From Candidatus Latescibacterota bacterium (GTDB lineage Bacteria > Latescibacterota > UBA2968 > UBA8231): a stretch of DNA of 64,000 nt. The stretch covers positions 704,001 to 768,000 of the forward strand of contig CBDCXV010000009.1 of assembly GCA_965223905.1 (NCBI GenBank), read 5' to 3'. The translations under genes and the position numbers were made by a program. The notes beneath the pieces are model-generated. The model searched no databases, was not told the DNA's origin, and saw nothing but the letters and a program-made list of their open reading frames with translations. Position 1 is the stretch's first letter; the number at the start of each line of letters is the position of its first letter. Below are positions 40,181-51,270 of the stretch, piece by piece.

Positions 40181-40578
40181 TGTACATGCTGGATACCAAC
40201 ATCTGCATCTACGTCATCAACGAGCGCGACGAGGCCCTGCGCGAACGGTTCGAAGCACACGCGGCGGAGATCTGCATCTCCTCGATCACCTACGCGGAGC
40301 TTTGCTACGGGGTCGCCAATTCGGAACGCGTCGAGGAAAACAGGCGGATGCTGGAGGATTTTCGTCACGATCTGGCGATTCTTCCGTTCGGCGCCGATGC
40401 CGCGGCGCATTACGGCGAGATTCGCCAGGCGCTCAGGCAGCGCGGCAGGCCGATCGGTGCGAACGATCTCTTCATTGCGGCGCATGCCCGCAGTCTGGAC
40501 GCGGCTCTGGTTACGAACGATCCGGGGGAGTTCGGGCGCGTGCCGAAACTGCGGGTGGAGAACTGGTCCCGGTCGTAA
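40180..40578 (+). CDS. vapC: VapC PIN-domain toxin
   Basis: MYMLDTNICIY, SSITYAEL, IGANDLFIAAHA and LVTND..EF.RV..L.VENW. Confidence 0.92.
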   Translation: MYMLDTNICIYVINERDEALRERFEAHAAEICISSITYAELCYGVANSERVEENRRMLEDFRHDLAILPFGADAAAHYGEIRQALRQRGRPIGANDLFIAAHARSLDAALVTNDPGEFGRVPKLRVENWSRS

Positions 40579-40752
40579 CCCCCTGCCTCCGCCGAGGTGT
40601 GACTGGTCCGCGCGGACGGTCAGCACCGCCTGTCTTCACCGGGAATGATACCGCGCATGAACTGGTCGGACAGGGGCAACCGTGAAGGAGGTATCACCGT
40701 CCAGGGCCGCGACCGCAGGCGCTGGAGTGCCGGCATGCAGGAACCGCCCGGG

Positions 40753-40781
40753 TTGCGGAACGTCAGCGGTCCGGGTATGTT
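40753..40781 (+). promoter_or_regulatory. Putative sigma70 promoter of the cus operon
   Basis: TTGCGG-N17-TATGTT ending 19 nt before the ATG at 40801. Confidence 0.5.
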
Positions 40782-40800
40782 GCGACAAATCGGAACTGAA

Positions 40801-41181
40801 ATGAGAATCGCCCGAGCCATCGCGCTGGCAGCGCTCGTCGCCGCCCTGCCGGCTTCCAGCTTCGCCCTGGAGGGGTACTGCCTCCACTGCGCGCAGGTGG
40901 AGACCGTCCCAGGCTGCCACCCGCAGCAGGCCGACGACCGGCCGCAGCTTCGGGCCGACTGCTTCTGCTGCGCCGCCCTGGCCTGCGCCGAGGATTCGCA
41001 GCCTTCCTCCGAGCCGGGCCACAGCTATCTGCCCGCGGCCAAGGCCCCGGCCGTTGCGCTCGCCGCCAAGGCTCCGGAACGCGCTCCCCGGGCGGCAACG
41101 CCGCGCCCCTCCGGAATTCGCCCCCCGCTGCATCCCGCCACAGTTCCCCTCTACGTCCTCCACGACGTCTACTTGATCTGA
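40801..41181 (+). CDS. Cys-rich exported leader protein upstream of cusC (DUF2946/CutF/CruR-like architecture)
   Basis: Signal peptide; CLHC, CH and CFCC; Pro/Arg-rich tail RPP...LYVLHDVYLI. Confidence 0.7.
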   Translation: MRIARAIALAALVAALPASSFALEGYCLHCAQVETVPGCHPQQADDRPQLRADCFCCAALACAEDSQPSSEPGHSYLPAAKAPAVALAAKAPERAPRAATPRPSGIRPPLHPATVPLYVLHDVYLI

Positions 41182-41339
41182 TCCTCCTCCGCTCTCGTCG
41201 CGCCGCCGCGGCCGATGCAGAGCGCAACAAGTGAAGCGCAGGCCGGTCCTGCCCCGAAGGCCGGGCCGCGAGTCCTGCGCATTGCCGCGCGTACCGGTCT
41301 ACCCGGCGCGCGGGCCGTTCGCCTTTTTCAGGAGGAGGA
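41182..41339 (+). promoter_or_regulatory. Structured intergenic RNA whose anti-SD pairs with the cusC ribosome-binding site
   Basis: TCCTCCTCC (41182-41190) is the exact complement of GGAGGAGGA (41331-41339); three internal hairpins. Confidence 0.65.
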
Positions 41340-41341
41340 AG

Positions 41342-42601
41342 ATGCACCGAAGAATCATTGCCGCCGCGGCGCTGGCGCTGGCCGCGTCCGCAGGCGCCGA
41401 ACCACCCGAGCTCGACTTCGAGCGCCTGATCGAGGAGGCCCTGGCCGCGAATCCCGGGCTGAAGGCGCTCGAGCACCGGACAGCCGCGGCCGAGGCCAGG
41501 GTCCCGGCGGCCGGGGCGCTGCAGGACCCGTCGCTGCGGCTGGAGCTGAGCAACGTCCCTTTCAGTCCCCTCGACCTCGACGGCTCGCCGATGAGCGGCC
41601 GCCAGGTAACCCTGTCCCAGAAGCTCCCCTACCCGGGCAAACGCAAAGCCCGGGAACGCGCCGCCTCCCACGCCGCCGAGGCCGTTGCAGCCGCCCACCG
41701 GGAGCGCGAGCTGACCGTGGCCAACATGGTGAAGCAGGCCTATTACGAGCTCGCCTTCCTCGACCGGGCGATAGCCATCGCCGAGAGGAACCGGTCTCTG
41801 CTGAAGGATTTCGTCCGCATCGCGCAGAGCAAGTACTCGGTCGCCCGCGGCCCGCAGCAGGACGTGCTCAAGGCGCAGGTGTCGCTGTCGAGCCTGCGCG
41901 GCCGCCTGTTGATGCTGGAACGGCAACGGCGGCGGACTGGCGCCCGACTGAATGCGGTGCTGAACCGGCCCCCGGGCGAGCCAGTGGGCAGGACGCCCCC
42001 GATCGAGCCGACCCCTTTCGACATCGACGCGGGCCGGCTGCGGGAGATCGCCCAGGGGGAGCGGCCACTGCTGAACGGCCTGCGCGCTCGGCGAGACCGC
42101 TGGCGCGCCACCGAGGAGTTGGCGGTCCGGGAACGCCGCCCGGACTTCCAGGTCAGCGCCGCCTGGCGCCAGCGCGGCTTCAGGGAGGATCCGGTGGCGG
42201 GAAGCGACTTCTTCTCCGCCGGCGTAGTGCTGAACCTGCCGGTCTACCAGGGGCGCAGGCAGGACCGGGAGATCGCCGCGGCGCGGGCCGAGGTCAGGGC
42301 GGCCGAGGCGGAGCTCGAGGCGGAAAGCCGGGAGCTGGCGCTGCAGATCGAGCAGTTGCGGATCGACGCCGAGACCCACCTGCGGGAGATGGCGCTGTTC
42401 CGCGACGCGATCATCCCCCAGGCCGACCAGTCGCTGGCCGCGGCCATCGCCGGCTACCAGGTCGACGAGGTCGACTTCCTCACCCTGCTGGACAGCCAGG
42501 TAACCCTGCTGAATTTCGAGATCGACTACTACCGCCACCTGTCGCAATACGAGAAGACCCTGGCGCAGCTGGAGTCCGTCGTGGGCAGGAGGATCTTCTG
42601 A
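41342..42601 (+). CDS. cusC: Heavy-metal efflux outer-membrane factor (TolC/CusC/CzcC-like)
   Basis: Signal peptide; SQKLPYPGKR, QQDVLKAQV and YQVDEVDFLTLLDSQ; precedes cusB and cusA. Confidence 0.82.
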   Translation: MHRRIIAAAALALAASAGAEPPELDFERLIEEALAANPGLKALEHRTAAAEARVPAAGALQDPSLRLELSNVPFSPLDLDGSPMSGRQVTLSQKLPYPGKRKARERAASHAAEAVAAAHRERELTVANMVKQAYYELAFLDRAIAIAERNRSLLKDFVRIAQSKYSVARGPQQDVLKAQVSLSSLRGRLLMLERQRRRTGARLNAVLNRPPGEPVGRTPPIEPTPFDIDAGRLREIAQGERPLLNGLRARRDRWRATEELAVRERRPDFQVSAAWRQRGFREDPVAGSDFFSAGVVLNLPVYQGRRQDREIAAARAEVRAAEAELEAESRELALQIEQLRIDAETHLREMALFRDAIIPQADQSLAAAIAGYQVDEVDFLTLLDSQVTLLNFEIDYYRHLSQYEKTLAQLESVVGRRIF

Positions 42602-42780
42602 TGCTCGCCGGCAAACCATTTCTCGCGAAGGGGCCGGTGCAGTACGGACTCGCTGGGCTGCACTTCCCCGGCGGGTGCCCAACCACTCACCGGTTGCCCG
42701 CCATGCGAGCCGGGCGCCCCGGCGCCCTGGTCGGGCGCGAGTACCTGCTGCTGCGAGCACTGAGGGAGCGAAGATCATGA
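42601..42780 (+). CDS. Putative 59-aa small ORF bridging cusC and cusB
   Basis: ATG overlaps the cusC stop (TGATG) and its TGA overlaps the cusB start (ATGA); no recognisable family. Confidence 0.35.
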   Translation: MLAGKPFLAKGPVQYGLAGLHFPGGCPTTHRLPAMRAGRPGALVGREYLLLRALRERRS

Positions 42781-44156
42781 AGAACACCACGTGGAAATAC
42801 GGGATCGCCGTCGTCCTGTCGCTGGCCGCCGGGCTCGGTCTCGGCCTGTGGCTGGGGGGCGCATTCGAAATGCAGACGTACGCCCAACATGAGGAAGCCT
42901 CCGTGTACCGCTGTCCCATGCACCCGACCGTGGTCTCCGACGGTCCGGGCAGCTGCCCGGTCTGCGGCATGGACCTGGTGGCCGACGAGCCGGCCGGAGG
43001 CAGCGCATCCGGAGGCGAACGCGTCATCGCGTACTGGCGGGCGCCGATGGACCCGTCGTACACCTCCCCGGAGCCGGGAAAGTCGCCGATGGGAATGGAC
43101 TTGGTGCCGGTGTACGAGGACGAGCTCCAGGCCGAGGGCACGGTGACCATCGATCCGGCGACGGTGCAGAACATCGGGGTGAAGACCGCGGCGGTGGAGC
43201 GCCGGATTCTGCACCGCACCCTGCGCACCGTCGGCCGCGTCGACTACGACGAGACGCGCATGACCGACGTCAACACCAAGATCGCCGGCTGGGTGGAGAA
43301 GCTGTTCGTCGACTACACCGGGCAGATGGTCGGGAAGGGAGAGCCGCTGCTGCAGATCTACAGCCCGGAGCTGGTGGCGGCCCAGGAGGAGTTCCTGACC
43401 GCCGTCGACTACAGCGAGCGCCTGCGGGCCGGCGCGGAGGGCGACGCCCTTGCGGGCGCGCGCGACCTGCGGTCGGCGTCGCTGCAGCGGCTGCGCTACT
43501 GGGACATCAGCGACCGGCAGATCGAGGCGCTGCGGGAGACGGGGAAGGTGCGGCGCACCATGACCGTGCACTCCCCGCAGCAGGGGACCGTGGTTCACAA
43601 GGGGGTGTTCGACGGCCAGCACATCGCCCGGGGGCAGCACCTCTACCGCATCGCCGAGCTGTCGCGGGTCTGGGTGTACGCCGACATCTACGAGTACGAG
43701 CTGCCGTGGGTGCGGGAGGGGCAGGAGGCCGAGGTCGAGCTCTCCTACCTGCCCGGGAAGACCTTCACCGGCAAGGTCACCTACGTCTATCCGTTTCTCG
43801 AGGCGAAGACCCGCACCGTGAAGGTGCGCATGGCCTTCCCCAACCCCGGACTCGAGCTGAAGCCGGGGATGTACGCCAACGTCACCATCCGCTCGCCGCT
43901 GCCGGCCGAGAGCGTCGTCGCGGTTCCGGTGCAGGCGGTGATCCACTCCGGGCCGCGCTACGTCGCCGTCGTCAGCCTCGGGGAGGGCCGCTTCCAGCCG
44001 CGCGACATCCGCGTCGGGGCCGAGGCCGGCGGCTTCTACGAGGTGCTCGAGGGCCTCCGCGAAGGGGAGCGGATCGTCACCTCGGCGCAGTTCCTGATCG
44101 ACTCGGAGAGCAACCTGAAGGCCGCGGTCGGCTCCATGCGGGAGGGTTCGTCATGA
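42777..44156 (+). CDS. cusB: CusB-family heavy-metal efflux adaptor with N-terminal metal-binding domains
   Basis: YRCPMHP...CPVCGMDLV, YWRAPMDP...KSPMGMDLVP, LKPGMYA and QFLIDSES. Confidence 0.9.
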   Translation: MKNTTWKYGIAVVLSLAAGLGLGLWLGGAFEMQTYAQHEEASVYRCPMHPTVVSDGPGSCPVCGMDLVADEPAGGSASGGERVIAYWRAPMDPSYTSPEPGKSPMGMDLVPVYEDELQAEGTVTIDPATVQNIGVKTAAVERRILHRTLRTVGRVDYDETRMTDVNTKIAGWVEKLFVDYTGQMVGKGEPLLQIYSPELVAAQEEFLTAVDYSERLRAGAEGDALAGARDLRSASLQRLRYWDISDRQIEALRETGKVRRTMTVHSPQQGTVVHKGVFDGQHIARGQHLYRIAELSRVWVYADIYEYELPWVREGQEAEVELSYLPGKTFTGKVTYVYPFLEAKTRTVKVRMAFPNPGLELKPGMYANVTIRSPLPAESVVAVPVQAVIHSGPRYVAVVSLGEGRFQPRDIRVGAEAGGFYEVLEGLREGERIVTSAQFLIDSESNLKAAVGSMREGSS

Positions 44157-47100
44157 TAGGGCGCGTCATCGAAGCCTGCATCCGCAACAAGCTGTTGACC
44201 CTGCTGCTGACCCTGCTTGCGGCCGGCGCCGGGCTCTACGCCGTGGCCGACACCCCCCTCGACGCCATCCCCGACCTGTCGGACGTGCAGGTGATCATCT
44301 TCACCGAGTACCCGGGGCAGGCCCCCCAGGTGGTCGAGGACCAGGTGACCTTTCCGCTGAGCACGGCGATGCTGGCGGTGCCGTTCGCCAGGGCAGTGAG
44401 GGGGTACTCCTTCTTCGGGCTCTCCTTCGTCTACGTCATCTTCGAGGACGGCACCGACATGTACTGGGCGCGCAGCCGGGTGCTGGAATACCTCAATTAC
44501 GCCGGCGACCGGCTGCCGTCCGGGGTGCGGCCGCGGCTGGGTCCGGACGCGACCGGGGTCGGCTGGGTGTACGAGTACGCCCTCGTCGACACCAGCGGCC
44601 GCCGCGACCTCGCGGAGCTGCGCTCGATCCAGGACTGGTACCTGCGCTACGAGCTGACCAGCGTGCCCGGGGTCGCCGAGGTGGCGAGCATCGGCGGCTT
44701 CGTCAAGCAGTACCAGGTGACCGTCGACCCCAACAAGCTGGTGGCCTACGGGATTCCCCTGCAGCAGGTCGGGGCCGCGATCCGGCGCAGCAACAACGAT
44801 GTCGGCGGCCGCCTCATCGAGCTGGCGGAGACCGAGTTCATGGTGCGCGGGCTCGGGTACATCGAGTCGCTCGAGGACATCCGCAACGTGCCGGTGAGCG
44901 CCGGCCTCTCCGGGACCCCGGTGCGGGTGCGGGACGTCGCCACCGTGTCGGTCGGGCCGGAGCTGCGCCGCGGCCTGGCGGAGTGGAACGGCGAAGGGGA
45001 AGTCGCCGGGGGCATCGTGGTGATGCGCTACGGCGAGAACGCGCTGGAGGTGATCGACGCGGTCAAGGAGAAGCTCGCCGCGCTCGAGGCCGGGCTGCCG
45101 GAGGGGGTGGTGGTGGAGACCGCCTACGACCGCTCCGGCCTCATCCGCCGCGCCGTCGGCCACCTGCAAGAGAAGCTGATCGAGGAGTGCCTGGTGGTGG
45201 CCGCGGTATGCGCGCTCTTCCTCCTCCACTTCCGCAGCGCCTTCGCCGCGGTCTTCACCCTGCCCGTCGGCATCCTCGTCTCCTTCATCGTCATGTGGGG
45301 CCAGGGGATCAACGCCAACATCATGTCCCTCGGGGGGATCGCCATCGCCGTCGGCGCCATGGTCGACGCCGGCATCGTGCAGATCGAGAACGCCCACCGG
45401 CATCTCGAGCGCGACCGCGGCCGCAAGGGCCACTGGGAAATCATCGCCGACGCCTCCAAGGAGGTGGGGCCGGCCCTGTTCTACTCGCTGCTGATCGTCA
45501 CCCTGTCCTTCCTGCCGGTGTTCACATTGGAGCAGCAGGAAGGGCGGCTGTTCAAGCCGCTGGCCTACACCAAGACCTACGCCATGGCGGCCGCGGCCAT
45601 CCTGTCGATCACCGTGGTGCCGGTGCTGATCGGCTTCTGCCTGCGCGGCCGCATCGTGCGCGAAGAGCGCAACCCCCTCAACCGTTTCCTGGTCCGGGGG
45701 TACGTGCCGGTCCTCGGCTGGCTGCTGCGCCACAAGGCGGCCGTGCTGGCCGCCGCCGCGGCGGTGGTGTTCGTGTCGCTGTTTCCCTTCCGCAGCGCCG
45801 TCGCCGACCGTTTCGCCGACCGGCCCGGAAGCTTCGCGCACCAGGCGCTCCAGCGCCTGCAGCGGCTGTTTCCCCTCGAGATGATCGGATCGGAGTTCAT
45901 GCCGCCGCTGTACGAGGGGGACCTGCTCTACATGCCGACGACCCTCCCGGGGGTGTCGGTCTCCAAGGCGCGGGAGCTGCTGCAGCAGACCGACCGGATC
46001 ATCCGCAGCTTCCCCGAAGTGGAGAACGTTTTCGGCAAGGTCGGCCGCGCCGAGACCGCCACCGACCCGGCGCCGCTGTCGATGATCGAGACCACCATCA
46101 CCCTGCGGCCGCAGGAGGAGTGGCGGCCGGGCATGACCCCGGAGAAGCTGGTCGAGGAGCTCGACGCCGCGGTCCGCTTTCCCGGCCTCACCAACTCCTG
46201 GACCATGCCGATCAAGACGCGCATCGATATGCTCTCGACCGGCATCAAGACCCCCGTCGGCATCAAGGTCGCGGGGGACGATCTCCAAACGCTCGAGGAG
46301 GTCGGCCGGCGGATCGAGCAGGTGATGCGCGAGATCCCCGGCACCGCCAGCGTTTACGCCGAGCGGGTCGCCGGAGGCAACTACATCGACTTCGAGATCG
46401 ACCGCGAGGAGGCGGCCCGCTACGGGCTGACGGTCGGCGACGTGCAGGACGTGATCCTGTCGGCGATGGGGGGCGTCAACGTCACCTACACCGTCGAGGG
46501 GCGCGAGCGTTACCCGGTAAACCTCCGCTACGGGCGCGAGCTGCGCGACAACCTGCCGGCTCTCCAACGGGTGCTGGTGGCCACGCCGTCCGGGGCGCAG
46601 GTGCCGATGGCGCAGCTCGCCGACCTGCGCATCCGCAAGGGGCCGCCCGGCATCAAGAGCGAGAACGCGCGCCTCAACGCCTGGGTCTACGTCGACATCC
46701 GCGACGCCGACGTCGGTACCTATGTCGAGCGGGCGCGGCAGGTCGTCGGCGAGCAGGTCGACCTGCCGCCGGGAACCAGCCTGGTCTGGAGCGGCCAGTA
46801 CGAATACATGGAGAGGGCGCAGCGGCGGCTGAGCATCGTCGTTCCGGTAACCCTTGCCATCATCTTCCTGCTCCTGTATCTCAACTTCCGCAGCGTCACC
46901 GAGAGCCTGATCGTCATGTTCACCCTGCCTTTCGCCCTGGTCGGGGGGATCTGGTTCATCTACCTGCTCGGCTACAACATGAGCGTCGCCGTCGGCGTCG
47001 GGTTCATCGCCCTCGCCGGGGTGAGCGCCGAGCTCGGAGTGGTCATGCTGACCTACCTCGACCAGGCGCTGGAGAGCCGCCGCAGGGACGGCCGGCTCGA

Positions 47101-47401
47101 CAGCTCCGGCGATCTCGTTGCCGCGGTTATTGAGGGCGCATCGAGAAGGGTGCGGCCGATCTTCATGACCGTCGGCTCGACGGTCGGCGGCCTGCTGCCG
47201 ATCATGTGGGCCTCGGGAACCGGGTCCCAGGTGATGAAGCGGATAGCGGCCCCGATGGTCGGGGGGCTGGCGACCGCCACCCTGCTCGTACTGCTGGTGC
47301 TGCCGGCCGTTTACGCTCTGTGGCGCGGCCTTGAGTTGCGCGCCGGCACGAAACCGACAACTGATACACACACCCACAAGGAAGGAGTCAGTGCATCATG
47401 A
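44153..47401 (+). CDS. cusA: CusA/SilA Cu(I)/Ag(I) RND permease
   Basis: LDAIPDLSDVQVII, GPDATGVGWVYEY, EFMPPLYEGDLLYMP, WTMPIKTRIDMLSTG (Met triad) and MKRIAAPMVGG. Confidence 0.95.
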   Translation: MIGRVIEACIRNKLLTLLLTLLAAGAGLYAVADTPLDAIPDLSDVQVIIFTEYPGQAPQVVEDQVTFPLSTAMLAVPFARAVRGYSFFGLSFVYVIFEDGTDMYWARSRVLEYLNYAGDRLPSGVRPRLGPDATGVGWVYEYALVDTSGRRDLAELRSIQDWYLRYELTSVPGVAEVASIGGFVKQYQVTVDPNKLVAYGIPLQQVGAAIRRSNNDVGGRLIELAETEFMVRGLGYIESLEDIRNVPVSAGLSGTPVRVRDVATVSVGPELRRGLAEWNGEGEVAGGIVVMRYGENALEVIDAVKEKLAALEAGLPEGVVVETAYDRSGLIRRAVGHLQEKLIEECLVVAAVCALFLLHFRSAFAAVFTLPVGILVSFIVMWGQGINANIMSLGGIAIAVGAMVDAGIVQIENAHRHLERDRGRKGHWEIIADASKEVGPALFYSLLIVTLSFLPVFTLEQQEGRLFKPLAYTKTYAMAAAAILSITVVPVLIGFCLRGRIVREERNPLNRFLVRGYVPVLGWLLRHKAAVLAAAAAVVFVSLFPFRSAVADRFADRPGSFAHQALQRLQRLFPLEMIGSEFMPPLYEGDLLYMPTTLPGVSVSKARELLQQTDRIIRSFPEVENVFGKVGRAETATDPAPLSMIETTITLRPQEEWRPGMTPEKLVEELDAAVRFPGLTNSWTMPIKTRIDMLSTGIKTPVGIKVAGDDLQTLEEVGRRIEQVMREIPGTASVYAERVAGGNYIDFEIDREEAARYGLTVGDVQDVILSAMGGVNVTYTVEGRERYPVNLRYGRELRDNLPALQRVLVATPSGAQVPMAQLADLRIRKGPPGIKSENARLNAWVYVDIRDADVGTYVERARQVVGEQVDLPPGTSLVWSGQYEYMERAQRRLSIVVPVTLAIIFLLLYLNFRSVTESLIVMFTLPFALVGGIWFIYLLGYNMSVAVGVGFIALAGVSAELGVVMLTYLDQALESRRRDGRLDSSGDLVAAVIEGASRRVRPIFMTVGSTVGGLLPIMWASGTGSQVMKRIAAPMVGGLATATLLVLLVLPAVYALWRGLELRAGTKPTTDTHTHKEGVSAS

Positions 47402-47834
47402 AACGCTTCGATTCGCCGCCATCCTCGCCCTCGCCCTGCCGGTCGCAGCGGCCGGCAGCCCATCCGGGGCGACCGAGGAGACCGCCGTCGATACGGCTTC
47501 CATGCAGGGAGAGATCGTCGACATCGCCTGCTACTTCCGCCACGACTCCAGCGGGCCGGAGCACACCAAGTGCGCCGTCTACTGCGCCAACCTCGGGATG
47601 CCCCTGGCCTTCCTCGAGGAGGAGACGGGCAACCTCTTCGTCGTGCTGCCCTCCGGGCACGCGGACCCGAAGGAAGTTGTGCTGCCGCACCTCGGCCAGG
47701 CTGTGAGCGTCGAGGGGATCCTGTGGTCCTCGGGAGGCCTGACCGGGATCGAGATCATGGAGATTCAACCTGCCGGGGAGGCCGGTGCCGACCCGGCGGA
47801 AGGGGAGATGGAGGGAGGGCACAGTGAACACTAA
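47391..47834 (+). CDS. Exported Cys/His putative metal-binding protein
   Basis: GTG after GAAGGAG; signal peptide; GEIVDIACY...HTKCAVYC...GMPL; His-containing acidic tail. Confidence 0.72.
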   Translation: MHHETLRFAAILALALPVAAAGSPSGATEETAVDTASMQGEIVDIACYFRHDSSGPEHTKCAVYCANLGMPLAFLEEETGNLFVVLPSGHADPKEVVLPHLGQAVSVEGILWSSGGLTGIEIMEIQPAGEAGADPAEGEMEGGHSEH

Positions 47835-48159
47835 AGGGAAAGCCACCCTCGCCGTCGCAGCTGCGGCGGTTCTTCTGGCCGGAGGCGGCTACCTGTTGCA
47901 TGACCAAAGCCAGCCTCCGGAGTTGCCGCCTGACGGACTCGCCCTCTACCGGACCCTGCTGGAGGAGATCCCCGAGGTGGTCAGCGAGGTGCCGTGCGCC
48001 TGTTGCAAACAGACCCTGGCCTGGTGCTACGAGGGAGGCTGTCCCCCTACCTGACGCCAGTGCAACGAAGAAGGCCGTGACGCCTTCGAATGGCACCATG
48101 AAGGAAGGGGGATCGAGGAGATCAAGGAGCTGATCCTGGCGAAGTACTTCGACCAGTAG
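47824..48159 (+). CDS. Candidate selenoprotein, PCYCGC-like membrane-anchored Cys-rich protein with UxxC (UGA at 48052-48054)
   Basis: N-terminal TM; PCACC...LAWCY; frame continues past TGA as RQCNEEGRDAFEWHHEGRGIEEIKELILAKYFDQ* with host-like codon use; SECIS-like hairpin downstream. Confidence 0.78.
48052..48090 (+). promoter_or_regulatory. Putative bacterial SECIS element
   Basis: Stem GAAGGC/GCCTTC (48070-48087) with loop CGTGAC (GU at loop positions 2-3), 21 nt after the UGA. Confidence 0.65.
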
Positions 48160-48264
48160 TGGCCAGTCGTTATCATACCATGGTTGTCGGCTGGTTGGCG
48201 CTGTCGGCACCGGAGGCAGCCGATCACGGAGCGAGCGGCGAAGACCATTGATAGCAAAGAACGG

Positions 48265-49528
48265 ATGAATTCCATACAGGCGGGGGAAGATACCGAGCTC
48301 GAACTGAAGGAGATCGTGTTCCGGGGAGATAGGATTTCCTTTGCCAGGGAGGAAGGACGGGCTGCGTCCAAACTCGCAGAAGTATTCGTCAGCATGGCCA
48401 ACACGAAGGGGGGCGAGGTTGTGATGGGCGTGCCCAACAGCGATCGCATTCCAGTCGGAATCGACCACGAGATGCGCGATCTCCTGGAGCAATTCGTAGT
48501 CAACGTGGCGCTGAACAACTGCAAGCCTATGATCGTACCGGCGTTGAACTGGGAATACCTTCCCGGAGAAGACAGCGTGCCAAAGCTGTGTCTGATTGTT
48601 GAAATCCCCATGTCCAGATTCGATGTACACCAGACGAGCGACGGCCGCTTTCTTCAACGATTGGGAAGTCACCGGCAATCCATCCCTCCGGAACGACTGG
48701 CAGGCCTGCTGAGTGCTCGTCGCCTGACCAGCCCTGTAGAAGAAAGACCGGTTTTGGGCAGCAATCTGGATGATCTGAGCGAGGTTCGCTTGAACCAATA
48801 TTTCCTCGATCGCTTCCCGGACTGGTCCAGGCCCGAGGACTGGGGCTCCACCCTCGTCGACCACAAACTCGCCGTCGAGCTGGACTCGGGTGTGACGCCG
48901 ACGCACCTCGGAGTCTTGCTCTTTGCCGAACTACCAGAGCGGCATTTGAACGGCGCCTGCATCGATCTGGCCGCATATGCCCACGAGGAGCCCGACGGCA
49001 ATACCGTGGACAGCAAGCGGATCGTCGGCCCCGTGCCCGATCAGATCGCCCAGGCGCTGTCGTACATCCGGCTTTCACCCCTGGTTCCGACGCTCTCCAG
49101 GAAGGACGGAGAGGGCCGCATGGACTATCCGAGGTACGTGGAAACGGCTCTACAGGAAGCGGTCGTCAACGCCGTCGTGCACCGGGATTACGAGATCGCG
49201 GGTTCGCAGATCATCATCCGCCTGTTTCCCGACCGGATCGAGTTCCAGAATCCCGGTGCCCTCTACAACACCCTGACCATCGAGAACCTGTACGCGGGCT
49301 GTCAGCCTGTCCGCCGAAATCAGCTTCTGGCGGGATTCATGCGCGATTACAAGAGCGCGCTTACCGGCCGCAGCTATATGGAAGCGAGAGGCGAGGGGAT
49401 TCCTGAACCTGGTCAGGGACAGCCTGCGTCTGTCCGGGCGCCTCCCCAAGCTCGAACAGATCGGGGACGCGACCAAGCTGACGATCTACGCTGCGCGTCA
49501 TGAGGAGTTGGTGAATGATACGGATTGA
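48265..49528 (+). CDS. Schlafen/AlbA_2 + HATPase_c_4 (RecG C-terminal-like) protein; +1 frameshift at the G4 run 49395-49398
   Basis: GEDTELELKE, SMANTKGGEVVMGV, ALQEAVVNAVVHRDY, IEFQNPG and RRNQLLA; removing one G gives EARGEGFLNLVRDSLRLSGRLP...TKLTIYAA to TGA at 49528. Confidence 0.8.
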
Positions 49529-50082
49529 CGACGCACTCCTGCGATGGATGGCAGGGCGAAACATCGGCGTAGGGGGCTCAGGTAGTGGGCACCGAAGCTC
49601 TTCGCGTTGGTGATGCGGTCTTCGCCAGGCGTGATCGCCAGGGCCGGCAGGCTGCCGAACGCTGGGAGCTTCGGGAAGTCCTGGCGGTCGACGGCAGGGG
49701 GGATGTGAGTCACACGTGCCCCACAGGCAACCCGTCCGCTGAAGAGCCTACGATGTGGAACACCCTGGAATCTCAGTGCATCACCAGCGTCAGGACCATA
49801 CCGGCGACCCACCAGGGGATCGCCCGGAAACTGGCCGGCAAACTGGCGGGACGAACCGTGAACCAAAAGAATCTCTTTCGTCTCTACGAGCGATTCTTCG
49901 ATATATCAGTTCCTTCGCTGGGTATCTCCATACTTGCCGACCTGGATCTGCTCGACAGCATGGACCTGGACTGCTACTTGACCGAGTAACAGCCTGGGGG
50001 CCTTCTCGGCCGGGTGACATCCAGATCTTAAGAGATCATGCCGCCAGCCGCATTCTCATCTCCTGCCAATAAAGAAGCCTTG

Positions 50083-50118: not shown

Positions 50119-51270
50119 ATGACTGAAATTTACATACCTCAGGCACAACTGACTCGGCTCGAGCGTTCGGTCGCACCGGGAAAGGTCGTCGTGGTGTACG
50201 GTCCGAGGCGGGTCGGGAAGACCACCTTGATCCGGCGCTACGTTCAGCAGCACGACCGGGACGCCCTCGTGGTGACCGGCGAGGACATCGCCGTGCGCGA
50301 GTACCTGGAAAGCCAGTCCCTTGCCAAACTGAGGGCATTCGTCGGCGGGCGGCGGACGCTGATTGTGGACGAGGCTCAGTACGTGCGCCAGATCGGCCTG
50401 AACCTCAAGCTTCTTGCGGATCACGTCGAAGGCCTCCACATCATCGCCACGGGTTCTTCCTCCTTCGATCTCGCCCGGCAGACTGGCGAGCCCCTGACGG
50501 GTCGGAAATACACGCTGCTGCTTCTGCCCCTGGCCCAGCTGGAGCTCCGGGAAGTGGAAGCAGCCCATGAAACCAAGGCCCGGCTCGAAATGCGGCTGAT
50601 CTACGGGTCCTACCCGGAGGTCGTCCTCATGGAATCAAACGAGGACCGCGAGCTCTACATCAGGGAGTTGGTCGCTTCCTATCTGTTCAAGGACATCCTG
50701 CAGCTGGAGGGGGTCCGGCATACCGACAAGCTGCTGCGCCTGCTCCAGCTGCTGGCTTTCCAGATCGGCCGCGAGGTTTCGGTGTCCGAACTGGGGACCC
50801 GGCTCGGCATGAACAAGAACACGGTGGACCGCTATCTCGACCTGCTGGAGAAAGCCTACGTCATCTACAGCCGGGGCGGCTTCAGCCGCAATCTTCGCAA
50901 GGAGATCACCAAAAGCCGTCGCTACTACTTCTACGACAACGGGATCAGGAACGGACTGATCGGCAACTTCAACCCCCTGTCCCTCCGCGACGACGCCGGC
51001 GCCCTGTGGGAGAACTACATCATGGTCGAGCGGCTGAAGTACAACCTGTACACGGGGCGCCTGGCCGAGAGCCGTTTCTGGCGCACCTACGACCGGCAGG
51101 AGATCGACCTGGTCGAGGAGTGGGGCGGGCGGCTGCACGCGGCGGAAATGAAGTGGTCCTTCAAACCTGGCCGAGCCATCCGTGCGCCCGGCGGTTGGCG
51201 GCAGGCTTATCCCGACAGCTCGTTTGAGGTGGTTCACCCCGGGAACTACCTCGGTTTCATCGCCGGCTGA
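50119..51270 (+). CDS. AAA_14 ATPase + wHTH + DUF4143 protein
   Basis: YGPRRVGKTT, IVDEAQ, ATGSSS, YGSYPE, YFYDNGIRN, GALWENY and QEIDLV...AAEMKW. Confidence 0.9.
   Translation: MTEIYIPQAQLTRLERSVAPGKVVVVYGPRRVGKTTLIRRYVQQHDRDALVVTGEDIAVREYLESQSLAKLRAFVGGRRTLIVDEAQYVRQIGLNLKLLADHVEGLHIIATGSSSFDLARQTGEPLTGRKYTLLLLPLAQLELREVEAAHETKARLEMRLIYGSYPEVVLMESNEDRELYIRELVASYLFKDILQLEGVRHTDKLLRLLQLLAFQIGREVSVSELGTRLGMNKNTVDRYLDLLEKAYVIYSRGGFSRNLRKEITKSRRYYFYDNGIRNGLIGNFNPLSLRDDAGALWENYIMVERLKYNLYTGRLAESRFWRTYDRQEIDLVEEWGGRLHAAEMKWSFKPGRAIRAPGGWRQAYPDSSFEVVHPGNYLGFIAG

Follow-up and report, generated by a model that had tools for sequence, protein, structure and literature searches.

The stretch of DNA considered here, called the window throughout, comprises 64,000 nucleotides of a Candidatus Latescibacterota bacterium (GenBank assembly GCA_965223905.1, contig CBDCXV010000009.1, positions 704,001 to 768,000, forward strand). 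At 47824-48159 it contains a gene of 111 codons, one UGA included, which is predicted to encode a small exported selenoprotein and which lies in one same-strand block with the genes of a heavy-metal efflux pump. An earlier note on this DNA had proposed that the UGA is read as selenocysteine (Sec). Three features concern the gene itself:

47824 to 48159, plus strand: predicted selenoprotein gene (sequence, read-through translation, homologues, ratio of nonsynonymous to synonymous substitution (dN/dS), AlphaFold2 model)
48052 to 48054, plus strand: UGA, predicted Sec residue 77, first position of a UxxC motif (conserved TGA, alignment with Cys forms, contigs of sequencing runs)
48070 to 48087, plus strand: hairpin of the selenocysteine insertion sequence (SECIS) type (folding, frozen synonymous sites, absence in Cys forms)

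The start codon is GTG 47824, with the purine run GGAGGGAGGG (47810-47819) 4 nt upstream, and the start overlaps the TAA (47832-47834) of the preceding gene. After the TGA at 48052-48054, 34 further sense codons follow in frame before TAG 48157-48159. It was claimed in the earlier note that the frame stays open past the TGA and that the TGA occupies the first Cys position of a CxxC, and a re-read of the sequence agrees. The read-through product has 111 residues. Its hydrophobic N-terminal segment (about residues 7-25) is followed by the conserved motifs L-P-x-D-G ... E-I-P-x-V-V, by seven Cys/Sec residues within 23 positions (CxCC at 58-61, C68, C73 and U77-x-x-C80), and by two helices with K-Y-F at the C-terminus. 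The hydrophobic N-terminus, together with lipoboxes in some relatives, strongly supports the prediction that the product is exported or membrane-tethered. The GC-rich DNA of the window is full of long spurious open reading frames (ORFs), and an open frame alone is weak evidence in such DNA; the case for read-through therefore rests on comparison.

The TGA is almost certainly read as Sec, judging from the comparisons that follow. The earlier note had named as decisive the codon at the TGA in homologues and in reads, the fate of homologues on its 3' side, and the presence of Sec machinery in the genome, and on each of these points the outcome favors a selenoprotein. TGA stands at the same codon in all 12 distinct Sec-form loci from genomes, and also at locus L038, which has an additional in-frame stop. 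The 32-34 codons 3' of the TGA are conserved in frame through the K-Y-F end across the 12 loci, so that at the DNA level these homologues do not end at the TGA. A metagenome scan gave 28 loci, of which 19 were Sec forms, eight were Cys forms and one was spurious (TGA in 19 of the 27 real loci), some of them being the same contigs as the genome loci. Three distinct Cys-form sequences (L031=L040, L032=L041 and L051) carry TGT or TGC at the aligned position, and the Sec column is an invariant Cys across 67 aligned members of the superfamily described below. The ratio of nonsynonymous to synonymous polymorphism (pN/pS), summed over the 66 pairs of the 12 Sec-form sequences, is 0.31 upstream (44 codons) vs 0.26 downstream (32 codons) of the TGA; the downstream value indicates purifying selection, which argues that the tail is translated in the same frame. 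Contigs of DNA runs X2 and X4, from two further studies, also carry the TGA, no difference being listed at 48052-48054.

A search of genomes that reads through stops found the gene in eight of 61 relatives, the genome of the window included (six with TGA, two with no stop), and across the phylum 16 of 168 genomes matched, 12 with TGA and four without. The named records carrying the gene are metagenome-assembled genomes (MAGs) labelled Latescibacterota, Gemmatimonadaceae and Eisenbacteria.

The genome of the window contains selA (541 bits), selB (321.6 bits for the main match in a frame of 645 codons, 344.6 bits including a second in-frame match), selD (367 bits) and tRNA-Sec (72.6 bits; called tRNA-SeC (tca) by ARAGORN), and all of these matches exceed the curated cut-offs. 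The selB gene was found in five of five other Sec-form genomes tested. Among the Cys-form genomes it lies above the cut-off in three of four, the fourth match being a fragment at a contig end; loss of the Sec machinery thus does not account for the Cys forms. The selD gene (G000:C10:1272233-1273156, L023) has one in-frame TGA of its own, and the SelD of this genome, as far as the sequence indicates, is likely to be a selenoprotein itself.

The hairpin proposed in the earlier note (GAAGGC-CGTGAC-GCCTTC) was found at 48070-48087, its loop beginning 21 nt after the UGA. Six base pairs form the stem (48070-48075 with 48082-48087, GAAGGC/GCCUUC), and the loop has 6 nt (48076-48081, CGUGAC). Folding of 48040-48110 gave -27 kcal/mol (z = -3.24), and none of 200 shuffled sequences was as stable. 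Across the Sec forms the stem reads GA(A/G)GGC with GCCUUC, the sole change converting an A-U pair into G-U, and the loop is CGUGAY in 11 of the 12. The synonymous sites of the stem are frozen: the third bases of GGC, CGT, GCC and TTC (Gly, Arg, Ala, Phe) are invariant in 12 of 12 Sec forms, whereas the third base varies at Gly, Ile, Lys, Tyr, Phe and Asn codons that are just as conserved in other parts of the gene. Folded in a 33-nt window, the six intact Sec forms tested give hairpins of -8.7 to -11.3 kcal/mol and L038 one of -7.2 kcal/mol, whereas three Cys forms reach only -1.3 to -1.9 kcal/mol. The E-G-R-D-A-F peptide encoded by the stem is also missing from the Cys forms. In a bacterial SECIS, as modelled in bSECISearch, a stem-loop follows the UGA at a short distance and its loop has G among the first positions; the geometry of this hairpin fits. 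A scan of 47700-48300 against Rfam (E <= 10) gave no SECIS family, its lone match being a chance microRNA.

The alternative that the TGA is a true stop has to be weighed here. It would give a product of 76 residues, and the downstream conservation would come from a separate small ORF or an RNA element. Gene calling agrees with it on the surface, since 17 of 18 public calls of close homologues end at the residue just before the TGA, and the downstream part has been called as its own 32-residue protein in one database entry (P0062). A TAA six codons past the TGA in the Eisenbacteria copy points the same way. Two RNA-library contigs overlap the gene, from libraries that may contain DNA; one stops short of the UGA, and the sole contig that passes it extends 22 nt only. 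Against a true stop, the frame is unbroken in all 12 Sec forms with a protein-like dN/dS, the Cys forms are single uninterrupted proteins, the domain, which is modelled with confidence, has two of its helices and the partner Cys of the CxxC 3' of the TGA, and the genome has the complete Sec machinery. A true stop is accordingly held to be highly improbable, and the comparisons leave little doubt that the gene product is a true selenoprotein, 111 residues long.

Two other explanations of the TGA were rejected. Reading as Trp is suggested by the 18th public call, which gives W at this position followed by the conserved tail (the codon in the DNA being TGA, L075); it was rejected because homologues carry Cys and because TGA is the inferred terminal stop in several of the relatives' gene copies. 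As for a sequencing error, the recurrence of the TGA across many assemblies and its presence in runs X2 and X4 speak against it.

Some irregular copies and records were also seen. In L038 (6016-6246, the Eisenbacteria MAG) the in-frame TAA falls inside the 5' arm of the hairpin, while the tail beyond is still conserved; this copy has either become a pseudogene recently or been misassembled. P0043 is a 56-residue database fragment of the branch in which Gly stands in for Sec and the N-terminus is unrelated; it may reflect a TGA-to-GGA change or a chimeric call. The only RNA libraries with contigs from this stretch (runs X19 and X20) are recorded as sponge metatranscriptomes, and their contigs are 95-100% identical to parts of the selenoprotein gene and of the preceding gene.

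The window protein matches the NCBIfam model NF041379 ("CYCXC family (seleno)protein") at 33.5-33.9 bits, below the cut-off of 90 bits, with an E-value of about 3e-8 (2.4e-8) over profile positions 22-89 of 90, a span that includes the Sec site. None of the 168 genomes of the phylum has a match to this model above the cut-off, and Pfam, including PF13798 (PCYCGC), gave no match to the window protein at E <= 1. The domain profile searched against 1.84 billion proteins retrieved 103 cluster representatives at E <= 0.001, namely 23 with CxCC that end at the Sec position, 12 with untruncated CxCC, 60 with CxCxC, one with both motifs and seven others. PF13798 is matched by 54 of the 67 aligned members (E <= 0.01) and NF041379 by 63. 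In this alignment C58, C60, C68, C77 and C80 are invariant and C61 is nearly so, and the sole CxxC column pair is U77/C80 of the window protein. An Atlas search with a Cys-form homologue placed the PF13798/CYCXC clusters as the nearest named ones (scores 0.80-0.81), which serves as a lead only. The kinship with PCYCGC/CYCXC proteins to which the earlier note had pointed is therefore real though distant, the NF041379 match being sub-threshold and the branch profile reaching the family; by sequence, the window protein is a divergent CxCC sister branch of the PCYCGC/CYCXC (OS_HP4) superfamily.

Sec is already known at this CxxC in the superfamily, since the available parts of two reviews list it: CYCXC/OS_HP4 is tabled as a selenoprotein family with "UxxC, 1 Sec" (PMC13188914), and OS_HP4 with UxxC stands among the hypothetical proteins without function in a 2022 review (PMC9312934). 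The novelty of the window protein is lower for this reason than the earlier note had assumed. The placement of Sec at the UxxC of NF041379 rests on the alignment, the set compared having no Sec-form member of that family. Both groups consist of small exported Cys-rich proteins whose only CxxC begins with Sec or Cys, and they have six Cys columns in common as well as a C-terminal helix pair of the kind G-x-S/x-x-E-I ... Y-G/F. They differ in that the window branch has CxCC instead of CxCxC (C-Y-C-x-C), an additional Cys (73) before the Sec residue, and either an anchor of the Sec-export type or a lipobox, whereas many CxCxC relatives have twin-arginine signals. The window protein also falls below both curated thresholds, and its branch recurs near copper exporters, a link of which the available review passages make no mention. 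Many of the CxCxC relatives (P0059, P0066, P0073 and others) start with RRxFL twin-arginine signals and share an H-P-x-P-R-x-G motif, which is absent from the branch of the window; the twin-arginine signals hint that these relatives may fold or bind a cofactor before export.

The selenoprotein gene is preceded on the same strand by four genes:

41231 to 42601, plus strand: TolC-family outer-membrane channel (TIGR01844, E 5.2e-22, below cut-off)
42675 to 44156, plus strand: CusB-like periplasmic adaptor with heavy-metal-binding (HMBD) repeats at the N-terminus (PF16576, 279 bits; PF19335, 72.7 bits)
44168 to 47401, plus strand: CusA/CzcA-family heavy-metal pump of the resistance-nodulation-division (RND) type (TIGR00914, 1226.8 bits vs 701; PF00873)
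47398 to 47834, plus strand: P2, predicted exported protein with an oligonucleotide/oligosaccharide-binding (OB) fold model (alignment, AlphaFold2, Foldseek)

These genes and the selenoprotein gene form one block, which has the composition of a CusCBA-type heavy-metal RND operon with predicted copper/silver specificity. The fourth transmembrane segment (TM4) of the CusA protein carries a motif of the kind A-x-G-x-M-V-D-A-x-I-V-x-x-E-N, which we take to be typical of monovalent Cu/Ag pumps. In NCBIfam the best match of the adaptor is NF007303 (CusB) at 214 bits, short of the cut-off of 390, and TIGR01730 is matched at 131 bits (> 94.9). The earlier note called the selenoprotein gene the last gene of a Cus operon and took no account of P2. 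Its position is only approximately the last, a same-strand ORF beginning 25 nt downstream at 48184, and one further gene (47398-47834, P2) stands between cusA and the selenoprotein gene, which corrects the earlier description of the context.

The same neighbors recur at other loci. The Sec gene follows CusA, either immediately or with P2 in between, in G000, G001, G002, G005, G161, G165, G166 and G167; the order in G003 is P2-Sel-TolC; and a TolC homologue adjoins the selenoprotein gene at L030, L080, L081 and L092. Metagenome contigs add the orders CusB-CusA-Sel-P2-ATPase and P2-Sel-TolC-CusB-CusA. Cys forms follow CusB-CusA-P2-ATPase (G028), CusA (G164) and CusA-P2 (L097), and those of G033 and L098 adjoin a YHS/HMBD P-type ATPase. 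About half of the loci adjoin CusA/CusB/TolC, a copper-type P-type ATPase or a Cys/His/Met OB-fold protein.

P2 gave no match in Pfam or NCBIfam at E <= 0.001. Three Cys, two His, one Arg and a Met-Pro are conserved in its alignment (A5), and its candidate Cys/His/Met ligands lie on a helical insert of the OB-fold model. That model has a mean predicted local distance difference test (pLDDT) of 87.1 and is confident in just two of five AlphaFold2 models, and its top matches in a Foldseek search of the PDB are all OB-fold proteins, with E about 4e-3 and a query-normalized template modelling score (TMq) of about 0.5. The P2 gene adjoins the Sec or Cys gene in several gene orders. One extra C after 47408 is present in contigs of three runs (X19, X2 and X4), and the window probably has a 1-nt assembly deletion at 47398-47410; the extra C places the start of P2 at ATG 47398, which has an ATGA overlap with the cusA stop, gives a normal signal peptide, and replaces odd GTG/TTG starts. 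CusF of the E. coli cusCFBA operon is a periplasmic Cu(I)/Ag(I) chaperone with an OB-type barrel, and P2 is regarded as a candidate chaperone because its model is a barrel of the same type. Like CusF, P2 is small, predicted to be exported, encoded inside a Cus operon and modelled as an OB-type barrel; it differs in having no sequence match to any family and in carrying its candidate Cys, His and Met ligands on a helical insert.

Downstream of the selenoprotein stop, the ORF that starts 25 nt further on (48184-49503, plus strand) encodes a Schlafen AlbA_2/HATPase_c_4 protein, and 50119-51270 (plus strand) encodes an AAA_14-DUF4143 ATPase. A promoter-like site ahead of the 48184 ORF is no better than chance, and a promoter and terminator scan of 40400-49700 found sites no more numerous than in shuffled sequences. 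Just upstream of TolC, a small putative ORF (40645-41181, plus strand) has a signal-peptide-like stretch and C-x-x-C, C-H-P and C-F-C-C clusters, and gave no family match.

The AlphaFold2 model of the Sec protein, built from the 67-sequence alignment, has a mean pLDDT of 87.3, with 95-98 per 10-residue block over residues 31-110. Helices are modelled at 38-48, 50-53, 65-72, 78-92 and 97-109, and Sec77 directly precedes the helix 78-92. The two best Foldseek matches in the PDB are periplasmic domains of CcmH, a membrane-anchored thiol reductase that acts in cytochrome c maturation (2hl7 and 2kw0; target-normalized template modelling scores (TMt) 0.55 and 0.50, E 2.1 and 2.2). A CcmH alignment built from the genomes of 12 relatives was compared by hhalign with the wide profile of the superfamily, giving a probability of 78.9% and E 1.6e-5 over 63 columns; a control comparison with the P2 profile gave a probability of 0.3%. 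Remote kinship of the branch or of the whole superfamily with CcmH is likely but unproven. The two have in common a small helical membrane-tethered periplasmic domain in which a Cys motif is followed by a G-K-S-x-x-E-I ... Y-G helix pair, but the number and positions of Cys differ, and no cytochrome c maturation genes lie near the window gene. A bona fide CcmH gene is found separately in the genome (G000:C1:319658-320023). Most CcmH-family proteins of this lineage (L055-L070) have C-L-C-G-D-C ... T-C-x-C with five Cys and not a single CxxC pair, a layout that recalls the CxCxC ... C of PCYCGC proteins.

Taken together, these observations are read as a genuine selenoprotein that serves as a periplasmic copper-handling redox or binding accessory, a reading that as a whole has a slightly better than even chance of being correct; its functional part, an accessory role in copper or silver export, is put at even chances. 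The mechanism proposed is as follows. SelB and tRNA-Sec would decode the UGA at 48052-48054, aided by the hairpin that lies 16 nt 3' of it, and the product would be exported and held by its N-terminal hydrophobic segment, or by a lipobox in some relatives. Its small helical domain would present five Cys (CxCC, C and C) and the UxxC at a helix N-terminus within 23 residues, and this selenolate-thiolate center would serve to bind Cu(I)/Ag(I), to shuttle electrons in the periplasm, or both. Acting together with the OB-fold protein P2 and the HMBD-bearing CusB, it would bring the soft metal to CusCBA, or metal leaving a P-type ATPase would be made available as exportable Cu(I). This would amount to a job like that of CopG (discussed below) on a CcmH-like scaffold.

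Several results weigh against this reading, and the first group of them concerns linkage. No Cus, ATPase or P2 gene is seen in the available DNA at 11 of the 19 metagenome Sec loci, nor at the genome loci of G006, G131 and G144 or the Eisenbacteria locus. Several of these unlinked contigs have 1-2 kb only, but L082, L086, L090, L042 and L038 have kilobases of unrelated neighbors. Dioxygenase, glycosidase, oxidoreductase, cyclase and ankyrin genes are the neighbors at unlinked loci, and one clade of Sec forms is without any metal-gene link. The linked loci come in part from kin genomes (four of genus g18 and three of g1) and are not independent. The Cus context described in the earlier note held insofar as it recurs in several gene orders, but not for the clade without metal genes. 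CusA is 86-88% identical in amino acid sequence between g1, g18 and short Gemmatimonadaceae-labelled contigs (L034, L035, L043 and L045-L047, compared with window 44168-49503), and L034 also shares the downstream Schlafen/AlbA_2-HATPase_c_4 gene at 85% identity. These identities suggest that the block was transferred, or that binning and labels are mismatched. Close kinship among many of the linked genomes, together with 86-88% identity of the block across genera, leaves few independent linkage events.

The same facts favor an explanation in which the selenoprotein is real but has nothing to do with copper, being a general extracytoplasmic Cys-rich protein whose adjacency to Cus genes comes from shared descent or from a transferred island. 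In its favor stand the 11 metagenome and four genome loci that lack metal genes nearby. The high CusA identity between g1, g18 and contigs assigned to another phylum also suggests that a single transferred block has been counted repeatedly. A PCYCGC lipoprotein of Bacillales, moreover, adjoins the gene of an iron-binding protein, according to the available part of one source (PMC13068155). However, the link persists through at least four gene orders, it is also found in Cys forms 31-38% identical to the window protein (tblastn), and P-type ATPases, a second class of exporter, are included in it. A function unrelated to copper is considered distinctly improbable.

The second group of opposing results concerns the protein itself. 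No Met or His is conserved in the alignment of the Sec protein domain. Foldseek gave no PDB match at E <= 0.001 for the model, and the sequence search of the PDB returned designed helical proteins together with CcmH at E 0.13, the latter match resting mainly on the common G-K-S-x-x-E-I helix cap. With the narrow profile A2, the hhalign probability for CcmH falls to 11.7%, and Pfam gave no match of the window protein to PF03918 (CcmH). The parallel with CopG is that of a common short motif on a different fold.

A further explanation keeps the periplasmic redox chemistry and drops copper binding: the protein would be a CcmH-like thiol/selenol-disulfide oxidoreductase that binds no copper of its own and keeps periplasmic Cys, such as those of the CusB HMBD repeats and of P2, reduced, or repairs wrong disulfides induced by copper. 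Exchange of Sec and Cys is typical of redox centers, and it occurs at this site, where the UxxC is modelled at a helix N-terminus. CcmH is the best match by profile and by fold, the HMBD repeats of CusB and the three conserved Cys of P2 would offer substrates, and a redox role of a more general kind would suit the clade that has no metal genes. On the other side, the similarity to CcmH is short of significance in three of four tests, hhalign places the UxxC off the CcmH region that matches the CxCxC motif of the superfamily, and the loci examined have no DsbD- or CcmG-type electron donor next to the gene. Such an oxidoreductase is regarded as rather unlikely, and the accessory role in copper or silver handling is kept as the working interpretation.

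The branch described here is missed by both curated models and is systematically cut at the UGA by gene callers, and counts of selenoproteins in this phylum and in marine metagenomes therefore miss it. The repeated occurrence of its genes next to copper exporters and to P2, the Cys/His/Met partner with an OB-fold model, provides a testable functional hypothesis, and the possible kinship with CcmH would provide a structural frame for the whole family. If the copper-handling interpretation is true, selenium chemistry would be used to handle soft metals outside the cytoplasm. A bolder extension is that the Sec protein and P2 form an unrecognised periplasmic module, which would replace CusF-type chaperones, serve RND pumps as well as P-type ATPases, and capture or reduce copper and silver by selenolate-thiolate chemistry before passing them on; by extension, PCYCGC/CYCXC (OS_HP4) proteins would be a CcmH-derived extracytoplasmic thiol/selenol class. 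This extension is speculative and on present evidence doubtful, but if true it would be the first functional assignment for the superfamily.

Among known systems, the selenoprotein is not of a new kind; what is new is its association with copper export and its possible CcmH ancestry. The literature searches made found no description of a link of this branch, or of PF13798/PCYCGC proteins, with copper efflux, and supplements of reviews may list members of the branch. The available part of the source on CopG, a periplasmic copper-resistance protein, describes a Cu4 cluster bound by CxCC, genetic linkage to copA/cusCBA, and a proposed role in interconverting or passing on copper (PMC7558416). The window protein is likewise predicted to be periplasmic, has a CxCC motif and is linked to genes of this kind. 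CopG is thioredoxin-like with two Met ligands, whereas the window protein is modelled as all-helical and has no conserved Met; there is no sequence match between the two, and CopG is not reported as a selenoprotein in that part of the source (PMC7558416). Selenoproteins of metal transport listed in the available part of a review include the SO_0444-family Cu/Zn efflux transporter (UxC), an E1-E2 cation ATPase and mercury transport proteins, in some of which Sec may be a metal ligand (PMC13188914). Those are transporters or domains of transporters, whereas the window protein is small, tethered, encoded separately and of a different fold. In both cases Sec takes the place of Cys in proteins tied to the export of soft metals.

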